From NCBI GenBank assembly GCA_009908845.1, contig JAAAOQ010000221.1:13048-77047 (forward strand): a stretch of 64,000 nt of DNA, read 5' to 3'. The position numbers were made by a program, and so were the translations under genes. Shown one piece after another: positions 1 to 26,863 of this stretch (the stretch's first letter is position 1; the number at the start of each line of letters is the position of its first letter). This stretch comes from Gammaproteobacteria bacterium (lineage in GTDB: Bacteria > Pseudomonadota > Gammaproteobacteria > Chromatiales > Chromatiaceae). The notes under the pieces were generated by a model, which was not told the origin of the DNA, made no database searches, and saw only the letters and a list, made by a program, of their open reading frames with translations.

Positions 1-391
1 GCAATCCCAGCCATTGCCGTAGGCCGGTCCGCTCGCCCAATACTGGTCCCGACAGTGCGCCGGTCAAGAGCGGCTGCAGCGCGGTCACCAACGCGATGAT
101 CCCGGCCGGTGCACCCTGTTCCAGGGCAAGCATCACACAGGTGAGCCAGACGCCATGCGCGAGGACGCCGACGATTGCCGCATGGCCGACCGCGCGTGCA
201 CCCGGCCACCGCAGTCGGCAGCGGACCGTCAGCCAGAGCCCGAGCACCAGTGTCAGCACCGAGTAGCGCCAGAGCATCAGGGTCCAGGGGCCGGCATTAG
301 GCAAGCCATACTCGGCGCCGATGAAACCGGAGTTCCAGAGCAGTACGAACAGGATCTCGAGACCGACGAGATGAGCGAGAAAACGGGGCAT
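1..391 (-). CDS. DMT/EamA family transporter, 5' part (runs off the window)
   Basis: Not in the ORF track. Manual translation from ATG at 391 (AGGAG RBS upstream): MPRFLAHLVGLEILFVLLWNSGFIGAEYGLPNAGPWTLMLWRY...GIIALVTALQPLLTGALSGPVLGER, a typical EamA pattern. Confidence 0.85.
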   Translation of the reverse strand, partial: MPRFLAHLVGLEILFVLLWNSGFIGAEYGLPNAGPWTLMLWRYSVLTLVLGLWLTVRCRLRWPGARAVGHAAIVGVLAHGVWLTCVMLALEQGAPAGIIALVTALQPLLTGALSGPVLGERTGLRQWLGL

Positions 392-400
392 AGGGCTCCT

Positions 401-625
401 TTGTCCACGGCGAATGTGGGCAAGGCTGTGGATAGAGTTGGGATGCTGCGCGCTGCCGACTGATTTACCGACTGTTTCGGGATGCCGACGCCAACTTGGT
501 CAGAGACTGATCAACACCCTTCAATCAAGCGCTTACGTTGACCAGTGCTGTTTTAGTCCGACATCGTTGGCGAGCATTGTCAAGCCCGGCTTATCCACCA
601 GTGCTGTGGATAACCTGGTGAATAA
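401..625. promoter_or_regulatory. Two DnaA-box triads flanking an IHF site
   Basis: Boxes TTGTCCACG 401-409, TGTGGGCAA 415-423, TGTGGATAG 427-435; TTATCCACC 591-599, TGTGGATAA 605-613 (perfect), GGTGAATAA 617-625. AATCAAGCGCTTA at 523-535 matches IHF consensus WATCAANNNNTTR. Confidence 0.7.
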
Positions 626-863
626 CTGGGCAGGTGACGGTCTCGGGCCCTGTTGTCGTTGGGGTTTTGGGGCCTCCGCGTTCGCTTGGTCCCCAATTGT
701 TCAGCGCGGGATCGACGCCGGCATCTCGATCCGGTATTGCGATCTGGCCATCAGGTATCGAAACGTTTTTCCCCACAAGGTCTTAGGTCGGTTGGGCGAG
801 GTTTTTCACGCTATCCTCTGGGTGACGAGAACTGATTTGTCGGCTACCCGAGGTAACACCGCG

Positions 864-1502
864 ATGCCCGATCTGCTTAAATTGACCCTCGCCACGATCC
901 CGGAGGCGTTCTTCCATCGGATCGAGGCACGCATGACCAGCTGTACCGCGATTGCCTATCGCCAGGCTGTACGTACGCCGCCCGAGGTGCCCGCGTACCG
1001 GATGCGCTTGGGGACGACGCGCTATTTCGAGCGCAGCGAGGCATTCCGTCTCAGCGCCGAGGATGTCGGGATACCCTGTCGCCACGAGTATGTGAACACG
1101 CACGCATTCCCGCTGGCATTGAGCGGCCACTTTCTGATCACCCACGCCAAGGTGGCGTACTGGGGTGAGCCGATCGAGGACAAGGATTACAAGCAGGCGC
1201 TGGCGCGGCACAACCCCAGCGATGGCGAGCAGCTCGCACTCTGGGATGATACCGACCCGGATGCCGGCATCTTCGCGGTCTTGGTCGTGCGCTATGCCGA
1301 GCCAGGGTCGGGTCAGGATGAGTCGGTGCCGATGCGCATCGGCTTCGGCGTGCCGACACGCGATCTCAAGGGTTGGCACTTGCTGCTGACGCTCGAACAG
1401 CTCTTTGCGGCCTATGCCGATCAGGTTCCACAGCTGGTCGACCAGGCCAGGCCAGTGCTGAAGGCCAAGCGGGGTCGGATGGATACACCGAACAGCCAAT
1501 AA
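864..1502 (+). CDS. Hypothetical 212-aa protein, putative toxin partner of the downstream XRE-ImmA/IrrE protein (RmrT-like)
   Basis: ATG at 864 after GAGG. The ORF-track extension to 414 overlaps the DnaA boxes and is unlikely. Ends 20 bp before the peptidase gene. Confidence 0.6.
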   Translation: MPDLLKLTLATIPEAFFHRIEARMTSCTAIAYRQAVRTPPEVPAYRMRLGTTRYFERSEAFRLSAEDVGIPCRHEYVNTHAFPLALSGHFLITHAKVAYWGEPIEDKDYKQALARHNPSDGEQLALWDDTDPDAGIFAVLVVRYAEPGSGQDESVPMRIGFGVPTRDLKGWHLLLTLEQLFAAYADQVPQLVDQARPVLKAKRGRMDTPNSQ

Positions 1503-25558: not shown

Positions 25559-26863
25559 ATGGCTGCGTTCTCGGTTGAGGTCCTGCGAAGCGAGCTCGAG
25601 CGCTGGCCGTTCCCCGCGAGGCTATGGCTCGCCTTCAGTGGAGGGCTCGATTCCCATGTGCTCTTGCATGCCTGTTCCCGGCTGCGGGAGCGGCTTTCGC
25701 TGCGGCTGCATGCGATCCATGTCGATCATGGCCTGAATCCGGCCTCTGGTGACTGGTCCAACCATTGTCGGGCGGTCTGTGCCGGACTTGATGTCCCGTT
25801 CACGAGGCGCCAGGTGCAGGTCTCGCGCCGCTCGGGCGAGAGTCTCGAGGCCGTTGCTCGGGAGATGCGCTATCGTGTCTTGGCCGAGGTGCTTGCCCCT
25901 GGCGATATGCTGATGACGGCGCAGCATCTCGATGACCAGGCCGAGACACTGTTGCTGGCCCTGTTGCGTGGCAGCGGTGTGCACGGGCTGGCAGCGATGC
26001 CGCAATCGGCGCCGCTCGGGTCCGGAACACTGCTGCGCCCATTGCTCGGGATCGAGCGCGATGCCCTGCTGGCCTATGCGCGGGAGCACCATCTGTGCTG
26101 GCTGGATGATCCGGCGAACGAGCCCCTGGCATTTGACCGCAACCGGTTGCGCTCCCGAGTATTGCCGTTGCTCCGTGAGCGCTGGCCGGCGGCAGCACGA
26201 ACCATCGCGCGCTCTGCGGGACATTGCGCCGACGCGGCGCAGACCCTCGACGAATGGGCGGATGCGCAGTTGCCGGCGGTTGCGGGCGGCCGGCCTGGTA
26301 CGCTTTCGGTGGCAGGCTTGGCCGCACTCCAGCCGCGTCAGGCCCGCCTGCTGTTGAGGCGCTGGCTGACCGCAAGAGGCTTCCTGGCCCCCAGCACTGT
26401 GTTCTTGAGGCGCATCCTCGACGAGGTCCTCGGTGCGCGCGCGGATGCGACCCCATTGGTCGCTTGGCCAGGGTGCGAGGTGCGTCGCTATCGGGACGAT
26501 CTGTTCGCATTGGTGCCGCTGCCGCCGCCTCCGGCAGTGGCGCTCGATTGGGTTGAAGGGCACAAGCTCGAACTGCCGAGCGGTCTCGGTTGGCTCGAGG
26601 CGCCACAGGCGCCGTTACCGCCGCTTCAGGTTCGATTCGGCGAGCCAGGCCGACTGTGTGCGGCAGAGGCCCGGCCGCGGCGTCCGCTGACCAAGTTGTT
26701 CCAAGAGGCTGGCATTCCGAGCTGGCTGCGCCCGTTGGTGCCACTGTTGGTCGATCCAGCAGGCGCGTTGCGGTTGGTCCCCGGTGTCTGCGGCTGCGGG
26801 CTGTCGAAGACGGCCGTCCGTTGGCATGGTCATCCGTGGGAAGGGTTCGGGTGGTTCGACTGA
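25559..26863 (+). CDS. tilS: tRNA(Ile)-lysidine synthase
   Basis: AFSGGLDS PP-loop, HVDHGL, HLDDQAET, DRNRLR; follows accA. Confidence 0.95.
   Translation: MAAFSVEVLRSELERWPFPARLWLAFSGGLDSHVLLHACSRLRERLSLRLHAIHVDHGLNPASGDWSNHCRAVCAGLDVPFTRRQVQVSRRSGESLEAVAREMRYRVLAEVLAPGDMLMTAQHLDDQAETLLLALLRGSGVHGLAAMPQSAPLGSGTLLRPLLGIERDALLAYAREHHLCWLDDPANEPLAFDRNRLRSRVLPLLRERWPAAARTIARSAGHCADAAQTLDEWADAQLPAVAGGRPGTLSVAGLAALQPRQARLLLRRWLTARGFLAPSTVFLRRILDEVLGARADATPLVAWPGCEVRRYRDDLFALVPLPPPPAVALDWVEGHKLELPSGLGWLEAPQAPLPPLQVRFGEPGRLCAAEARPRRPLTKLFQEAGIPSWLRPLVPLLVDPAGALRLVPGVCGCGLSKTAVRWHGHPWEGFGWFD

Follow-up and report, generated by a model that had tools for sequence, protein, structure and literature searches.

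The locus and the parts of the element

The window analyzed here is a stretch of 64,000 nucleotides from a Chromatiaceae genome assembly of 4.16 Mb in 274 contigs (positions 13048-77047 of contig C201, genome G000). Toward its left edge, a gene for an EamA-family transporter and an ORF of 212 amino acids are separated by an intergenic gap of 472 bp (56% GC), and this gap holds two clusters of three DnaA boxes each. The features, in window positions, are as follows:

2-391, minus strand: EamA-family transporter gene, left neighbor (Pfam PF00892, E 2.8e-19)
387-718, plus strand: the whole composite element, about 330 bp, read as two tandem DARS-like units with an IHF site as the joint
401-435, plus strand: triad A, the weaker triad of DARS geometry, with boxes at 401-409 (+), 415-423 (-) and 427-435 (-)
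498-512, no strand assigned: palindrome 1, GGTCAGAGACTGATC, seen as a conserved block TTGGTCA..TGATCA in the alignment
523-535, plus strand: predicted IHF site AATCAAGCGCTTA, an exact match to the consensus WATCAANNNNTTR
578-584, plus strand: TGTCAAG block, invariant, 13 bp ahead of core box I
591-625, plus strand: triad B, the DARS-type core, with boxes I at 591-599 (+), II at 605-613 (-) and III at 617-625 (-)
688-702, no strand assigned: position of palindrome 2, GGTCCCCAATTGTTC, degenerate in the window copy, +97 from core box I
864-1502, plus strand: ORF of 212 amino acids, right neighbor, without a Pfam family and followed by a gene with HTH and Peptidase_M78 domains

The two triads share one layout, in which box II follows box I after 5 bp in the opposite orientation and box III follows box II after 3 bp. 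In triad A, boxes I (TTGTCCACG) and II (TTGCCCACA) each have 2 mismatches to the DnaA-box consensus TTATCCACA and box III (CTATCCACA) has 1; in triad B, box I (TTATCCACC) has 1 mismatch, box II is a perfect TTATCCACA and box III (TTATTCACC) has 2. The first-pass annotation of this DNA had described these twin triads, with every box within 0-2 mismatches, and an exact IHF consensus between them; both descriptions hold when the sequence is read directly against the consensus sequences. Palindrome 1 lies 97 bp from box I of triad A and 25 bp ahead of the IHF site. It matches the Fis consensus GNNYANNNNNTRNNC, which is a loose one; the pattern GGTCA-N5-TGAYC is more specific, and the GC-rich center is atypical.

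The limits of the element were drawn at 387 and 718, where homology to the other copies described below ends in the alignment. A profile built with nhmmer from five copies matches at C201:13434-13765, i.e., exactly window positions 387-718, and an Infernal sequence model of the element (R1) matches at C201:13441-13763. The ends of the element read TTTGTCCAC... and ...CTGACCAG and are not inverted repeats of each other. No known RNA family was found in window positions 1-1500.

Clusters of DnaA boxes can mark an origin of replication, and the locus was examined for this. Binned at 2 kb, GC skew along the 88.9 kb of contig C201 is almost everywhere positive, also in the 13 kb upstream of the window, and does not switch anywhere on the contig; the intergenic gap contains no AT-rich unwinding element (its lowest-GC 40-mer is still 45% GC); and the genes to which an origin is usually linked are elsewhere, dnaA at the end of C8, mnmG on C233. 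We therefore reject oriC, in agreement with the first-pass annotation, which had argued against it from the lack of dnaA/gidA genes or an AT-rich element nearby and had named a GC-skew minimum as the sign that would speak for it; none is present on C201. A better origin candidate, judged by sequence, lies at C116:800-1100, just past a tRNA-Leu(taa) gene: four DnaA boxes with at most 2 mismatches (three of them with at most 1) accompany a 40-mer of 12.5% GC in a genome of 65% GC, and GC skew passes from negative to positive there. The stretch is a candidate oriC; alternatively, it could belong to an element integrated at the tRNA gene and serve as the origin of that element. DnaA boxes also occur in the dnaA-dnaN gap (C8:24578-24720), and a perfect box lies at 26253, upstream of dnaA; C8 ends 110 bp beyond that box, so that the sequence farther upstream of dnaA, where oriC might also lie, falls outside the assembly.

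To the right of the element, the ORF at 864-1502 has a low third-position GC content and is overlapped by the HTH_3 and Peptidase_M78 (ImmA/IrrE-type) gene at 1373-2725; together they resemble a small module of two genes, foreign in composition and set among housekeeping genes. The HTH-Peptidase_M78 gene had raised the suspicion of a genomic-island or prophage boundary, which we reject, since the next 20 kb are of housekeeping type (genes for a DCC1-like protein, a GGDEF protein, dnaE, an HrpA-type helicase, PBP1C and sucrose-phosphate synthase) and synteny is kept in H. glycolicum.

A dispersed family with fixed internal spacing

Whether such triads might simply occur at background frequency, a doubt raised in the first-pass annotation, was settled by a genome-wide DnaA-box scan: they do not. 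The genome contains only 16 perfect DnaA boxes. When triads were counted with at most 2 mismatches in each box, a sum of at most 5 and spacers of 0-10 in all orientations (484 geometries), nine compact three-box clusters were found genome-wide, eight with exactly the window geometry; the ninth is a one-base shift of one of those eight, caused by a palindromic box. We also scanned the class with the core pattern TTATCCAC-N6-TGTGGATAA-N4-GTG, allowing at most 2 mismatches, and found it in 37 of 41 sampled genomes, as one to three copies, against a single match in total for the reversed control. With eight of nine triads sharing one of 484 geometries, and 37 of 41 genomes carrying the pattern against one control match, the triad geometry is under selection.

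The only other source of three-box clusters in this genome is a tandem array at C215:10407-10457, with a 14-bp period and box-like words TGATCCGCA. In genome G001 (locus L071), GTTCAGTTAACGAG is repeated five times with a 14-bp period upstream of the EamA ortholog, about 700-790 bases from its start, on the strand reading away from the gene.

Outside the window, the triads of this genome lie at C168:10553 and 10741 (a twin pair, 188 bp apart), C18:18122, C18:7923 (-), C73:1146 (-) and C94:300, and in the alignment homology among the copies spans about 330 bp, beyond the boxes themselves. Profile searching gives five full copies (C201, C168, C18 twice and C73) and about four partial or degenerate ones, namely C18:20539-20808 (permuted), C212:6498-6616, C108:12644-12923 and C94 (core unit only). 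The twin-triad element with a duplicated core, as first proposed, is real, but it is not singular: the genome holds at least five full two-unit copies. In the permuted partial copy (C18:20504-20808), the tail of a unit (the palindrome region, model positions 230-323) is followed directly by the head of unit A (model positions 10-204), without a strong core between the tail and head blocks.

The internal architecture was compared in 12 copies from this genome and H. glycolicum, with all positions counted from core box I. The mismatches of boxes I, II and III of the core are 1, 0 and 2-3 in 11 copies and 1, 1 and 2 in the remaining one, so that box II is perfect in 11 of 12. TGTCAAG (at -13 or -14) and a palindrome close to GGTCA-N5-TGACC (at +97 or +98) are each present in all copies except one degenerate copy; at the palindrome 2 position, copies C168, C18b and C73 carry the perfect form. 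An IHF consensus with 0-1 mismatch is found in 11 of the 12 copies, either at -67 to -71 or at -79/-80, and the first palindrome, where recognizable (8 of 12 copies), lies about 25 bp ahead of it. Triad A is at -188 to -204 in most full copies; it is well preserved (at most 7 mismatches over its three boxes) in about half and otherwise degenerate, and it stands about 120 bp ahead of the IHF site whichever the spacing class. What sets the classes apart is an indel of 11 bp in the stretch from the IHF site to the core, all other spacings being fixed; since 11 bp is about one helical turn, the rotational setting is kept.

The two halves of the element resemble each other as well. They align to each other better than shuffled sequences do (z 2.3-6.3), a CTGAT block (about +60) and a T-run (about +77) occur in both, and the distance from triad A to palindrome 1 (97 bp) matches that from the core to palindrome 2 (97-98 bp). 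Given these matching spacings, the half-to-half alignment and the common blocks, the element is a tandem duplication of a unit of about 190 bp (triad plus palindrome), and the joint between the units contains the IHF site and TGTCAAG. Perfect GGTCA-N5-TGACC sites number 10 genome-wide, three of them in elements; as there is no enrichment, we reject this motif as a genome-wide operator. More specific than the loose Fis consensus, it may bind a protein other than Fis.

The genes adjoining the copies (EamA, DoxX, DUF1810, H-NS, HD-GYP, MoxR-DUF58, BaxI, anthranilate synthase, IMPDH) are unrelated to each other, and this bears on the idea that the element is a DnaA- and IHF-dependent transcription module that couples adjacent genes, here EamA, to the replication cycle. 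Control of transcription by DnaA has precedents in the E. coli dnaA, nrdAB and uvrB promoters, and E. coli DARS1 itself sits upstream of uvrB. At the window locus, the EamA start codon is at 389-391 and the complement of its ribosome-binding site at 396-400, and triad A begins one base after it; transcription of EamA must therefore be initiated within the element or farther out. Yet no sigma-70-like promoter or terminator was found in window positions 300-950, the orientation of the element to its neighbors varies (divergent versus convergent), and it is the internal architecture that is conserved, not the position relative to start codons. Taken with the unrelatedness of the neighboring genes, this makes a transcription module improbable in our estimation.

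Dispersal in multiple copies of about 330 bp also invites comparison with a mobile or recombination repeat, in which the inverted repeat TTATCCAC-N6-GTGGATAA would be a recombinase core, IHF would be architectural and the likeness to DnaA boxes coincidental. Contigs often end near copies (C168, C73, C94), C18 holds the permuted partial copy, one copy adjoins an IS66-type transposase, and presence at the EamA locus differs within the genus: of the genus relatives, one has just the unit-A half ahead of the EamA ortholog and another has nothing there. Across the copies, however, terminal inverted repeats are lacking, and neither cargo nor a transposase or integrase is shared; the flanks are ordinary chromosomal sequence (including dnaE); the element has no similarity to plasmids; and apart from the H-NS and DoxX paralogs no flanking repeat common to the copies is present that could explain the contig breaks. 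Moreover, the triad is the experimentally defined E. coli DARS core and nearly universal in the class at 1-3 copies, and, as set out below, the paralogs are old and the orthologs positionally stable. We regard a mobile repeat as very improbable, and the same holds for the related notion of a secondary or relic origin, against which the missing AT-rich unwinding element and skew switch also count. A transposon with the two inverted C18 copies as its ends was likewise considered and rejected, given that the other copies are single, terminal repeats are lacking and ordinary genes lie between. On the same contig, H-NS-type paralogs at C18:8600-9070 (-) and C18:20124-20522 (+) each lie just upstream of an element copy (one full, one permuted and partial), which may be the result of a joint duplication of H-NS-type gene and element.

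The copies are stable over considerable distances. To either side of the locus, synteny with H. glycolicum DSM 11080 extends over more than 14 kb at 95% identity, and that genome carries orthologs of the copies plus additional ones, at least seven in all. In a tree of 21 copies, orthologous pairs differ by 0.01-0.04 substitutions per site and paralogs by 0.3-0.9, and it is in the linkers that they have diverged. The copies are old and evolve independently; that they still keep every block and spacing argues for function at each copy. The full architecture is also found in Lamprobacter, H. roseum and Halochromatium MAGs, and unit-length matches of the element model occur in 27 of 61 sampled Chromatiaceae genera, up to seven per genome. 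The conservation of the triad geometry in relatives (H. glycolicum, Lamprobacter and other Chromatiaceae), for which alignment of the orthologous region had been suggested as a check, is thereby confirmed. TGTCAAG and the core, in single copy and without the other blocks, are present in Paraglaciecola, Cellvibrionaceae and Methylophagaceae. The window locus itself is individually dispensable in evolution. In another Chromatiaceae genus (G022:C45:18819-19450), three DARS-type cores follow one another with an exact 301-bp period, so that the unit has expanded there in tandem and not by dispersal.

Comparison with the E. coli DARS and datA sites

The core of E. coli DARS1 (NC_000913.3, bioD-uvrB gap, L007 1608-1642) reads TTATCCACT, attcc, TGTGGATAA, cca, TGTGTATTA, and triad B of the window reads TTATCCACC, agtgc, TGTGGATAA, cct, GGTGAATAA; the two have the same orientation, the same 5- and 3-bp spaces, a perfect box II and AACC after box II. 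These properties agree with published work on DARS1, which describes the 5-bp space between boxes I and II, a box II of complete consensus and spacing that is conserved among DARS candidates (PMC6868365). DARS1 differs from the window element in being single-copy, in its bioD-uvrB neighborhood and in having no requirement for IHF or Fis; no IHF or Fis consensus sites were found within 190 bp of it.

E. coli DARS2 offers the closer comparison of surroundings. Its core (rppH/ygdT-mutH gap, NC_000913.3, L067 5136-5170) has the same 9/5/9/3/9 geometry, and the sites beyond it, as distances from core box I, are:

+93: IHF-consensus site 1, one mismatch
+109: IHF-consensus site 2, one mismatch, 3 bp after site 1
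+145: Fis-consensus 15-mer
+211: perfect DnaA box V
+316 (L067 5452-5486): second 9/5/9/3/9 triad, in the same orientation as the core

The corresponding sites of the window element, as distances from box I of triad A, are:

+97: Fis-consensus 15-mer
+122: IHF site, on the same strand as E. coli IBS2
+190: triad B

The IHF sites read here fit the published descriptions of IBS1-2, with their 3-bp separation and PciI overlap (PMC4245941, PMC11724364). The second E. coli triad (TTATCCCAG, 5, TGTGGATAA, 3, GGTGTAAGA) is degenerate overall, with a perfect middle box; the right half of DARS2 has been described as "DnaA boxes IV-VI" and as dispensable under the conditions used (PMC4245941). Because this degenerate triad of DARS geometry lies 316 bp on, E. 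coli DARS2 may be a decayed two-unit element of the kind found in the window.

The likeness to DARS2 is extensive: an opposed three-box core, an IHF consensus about 110-120 bp beyond box III on the same strand with a Fis-consensus 15-mer beside it, two triads around the IHF site with more DnaA boxes beyond, and a non-coding position far from oriC. There are differences, too. The Fis-like site precedes the IHF site in the window and follows it in E. coli; the distance from the IHF site to the next box is 68-79 bp in the family versus about 100 in E. coli; of the two window triads the second is the stronger, with a perfect box II, whereas box II of the functional E. coli core has one mismatch; and the window element is a clear tandem duplication of a unit of about 190 bp present in at least five dispersed copies, versus one in E. 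coli, with a neighborhood that is not shared. No copy of the element shows synteny with the DARS1 (bioD-uvrB) or DARS2 (rppH-mutH) neighborhoods.

The first-pass annotation had left the choice between a DARS and a datA-like site open. The element does resemble E. coli datA in having clusters of DnaA boxes on either side of a single IHF site and in its chromosomal position away from replication genes, and one can picture a DnaA sink or datA-like site at which box clusters around the IHF bend titrate DnaA or promote the hydrolysis of DnaA-ATP (DDAH), lowering initiation potential. The minimal datA, with boxes 2, 3 and 7 and one IBS (PMC11724364), has a similar plan; at least 8 of the 16 perfect boxes of the genome lie within elements and partial copies, so that a sizeable share of DnaA could be held there; and the far box cluster of E. 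coli DARS2 acts negatively via ATP-DnaA (PMC8682772). However, the essential boxes of datA have not been described as a head-to-head 9/5/9/3/9 triad, which is the signature that defines DARS, and the effect of datA, ATP hydrolysis, is the opposite one. Titration would not need the exact geometry kept in both triads across copies, although triad A is degenerate in about half of them. Geometry is the sole distinction between datA and the window element at the level of sequence, and it is this head-to-head core that makes "DARS" the better label; a sink or datA-like role we consider unlikely. Of the original DARS/datA-like reading, the DARS part thus stands, the core geometry being that of E. coli DARS1 and DARS2, and the datA part fits less well.

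Known DARS comprise DARS1 and DARS2 in E. coli, with homologs in V. cholerae and in "E. coli-proximal" beta- and gammaproteobacteria. The searchable literature contains no account of DARS in Chromatiaceae, nor of dispersed multi-copy DARS-type elements, which agrees with the earlier remark that such an element had not been described for purple sulfur bacteria. The DARS core itself is already known from E. coli; what is new is a dispersed two-unit family with a rigid architecture.

A probable role in the control of replication timing

Several of the host factors that a DARS would call for are encoded in the genome. Genes for both IHF alpha and IHF beta (ihfA, ihfB) are present, a small ORF with a Fis-type HTH (HTH_8) directly follows dusB, and an Hda gene scores over its curated cut-off; Hda implies RIDA and with it a pool of ADP-DnaA for recharging. 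For IHF beta, two genes score over the curated cut-off (C81:824-1099 and C61:10034-10309, with 154.9 and 150.6 bits), which reflects either a paralog or the 4% contamination of the assembly. The host DnaA, 58% identical to that of E. coli, keeps Arg227, Asp269, Arg281, Arg285 and Leu290 in the alignment and has Ser at the position of E. coli Gln208, a residue reported to be crucial to DARS-dependent ADP release (PMC6868365). In E. coli, Gln208 is required for the head-to-head arrangement, and Leu290 and Arg227 for contacts within the oligomer. More than anything else, the serine at position 208 speaks against carrying the E. coli mechanism over one to one. The dnaA gene on C8 (L062 973-2409, -) would encode a 28-residue N-terminal extension if its TTG start is real.

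Our preferred reading, to which we would give a probability of about 0.6, is that window positions 387-718 form a DARS2-like DnaA-reactivating element, one of a dispersed Halochromatium/Lamprobacter family. It builds on the architecture of the sequence, the identity of the core with that of E. coli, the conservation and the non-origin context; the element is most likely a site for the control of replication timing and not an origin. Binding of DnaA and IHF, and nucleotide exchange at the element, we infer by analogy with E. coli. ADP-DnaA would bind the perfect box II of triad B and recruit a second DnaA to the opposed box I (head-to-head, across 5 bp) and a third to box III (head-to-tail, across 3 bp); the head-to-head pair would release ADP, and apo-DnaA would then rebind ATP. 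IHF at 523-535 would bend the DNA so as to bring triad A and its palindrome (a putative Fis-type or other dimer site) against the core, and this contact might stimulate or gate the nucleotide exchange, the part that IHF and Fis play at E. coli DARS2. With several copies in a genome, the DnaA-recharging activity would be multiplied and distributed.

Some observations count against the DARS reading. Five to eight copies stand against two known DARS in E. coli, an excess that might reflect another function, or a further one, for example titration; the order and distances of the sites are unlike those of E. coli, no copy lies in a DARS1 or DARS2 neighborhood and the locus is dispensable. Chromosomal placement, for its part, does not support a general rule. 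In a closed 5.4-Mb Chromatiaceae chromosome (G058), sampled skew puts the origin near dnaA (position 0) and the terminus near 2.6 Mb, and the DARS-type cores, seven in number, all run in the direction of the fork at 62-84% along both replichores, in the terminus-proximal third; in G015, all three cores point against the fork, at 9-34% from the origin. With these two genomes opposite to each other, we draw no general rule for core orientation or position relative to oriC.

Beyond the DARS reading itself, a bolder and tentative possibility, in our judgment rather doubtful, is that of a modular "DARS cassette": a unit of about 190 bp would have been duplicated in tandem and spread to many sites of Chromatiaceae chromosomes, with its palindrome as the site for a putative dimeric factor, so that recharging would form a distributed network dependent on dosage and position, in place of one or two fixed loci.

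E. coli is the only organism in which the control of the DnaA ATP/ADP cycle by DARS has been elucidated, and here the same core is found in a distant, high-GC phototroph. The family provides many natural variants of one architecture in which the parts played by IHF, Fis-like factors and box spacing can be tested, and Ser208 of the host DnaA is relevant to the head-to-head contact that has been proposed. Should the sites act as in E. coli, the DARS mechanism would be old and widespread, and both copy number and chromosomal position would be evolvable parameters of replication timing.
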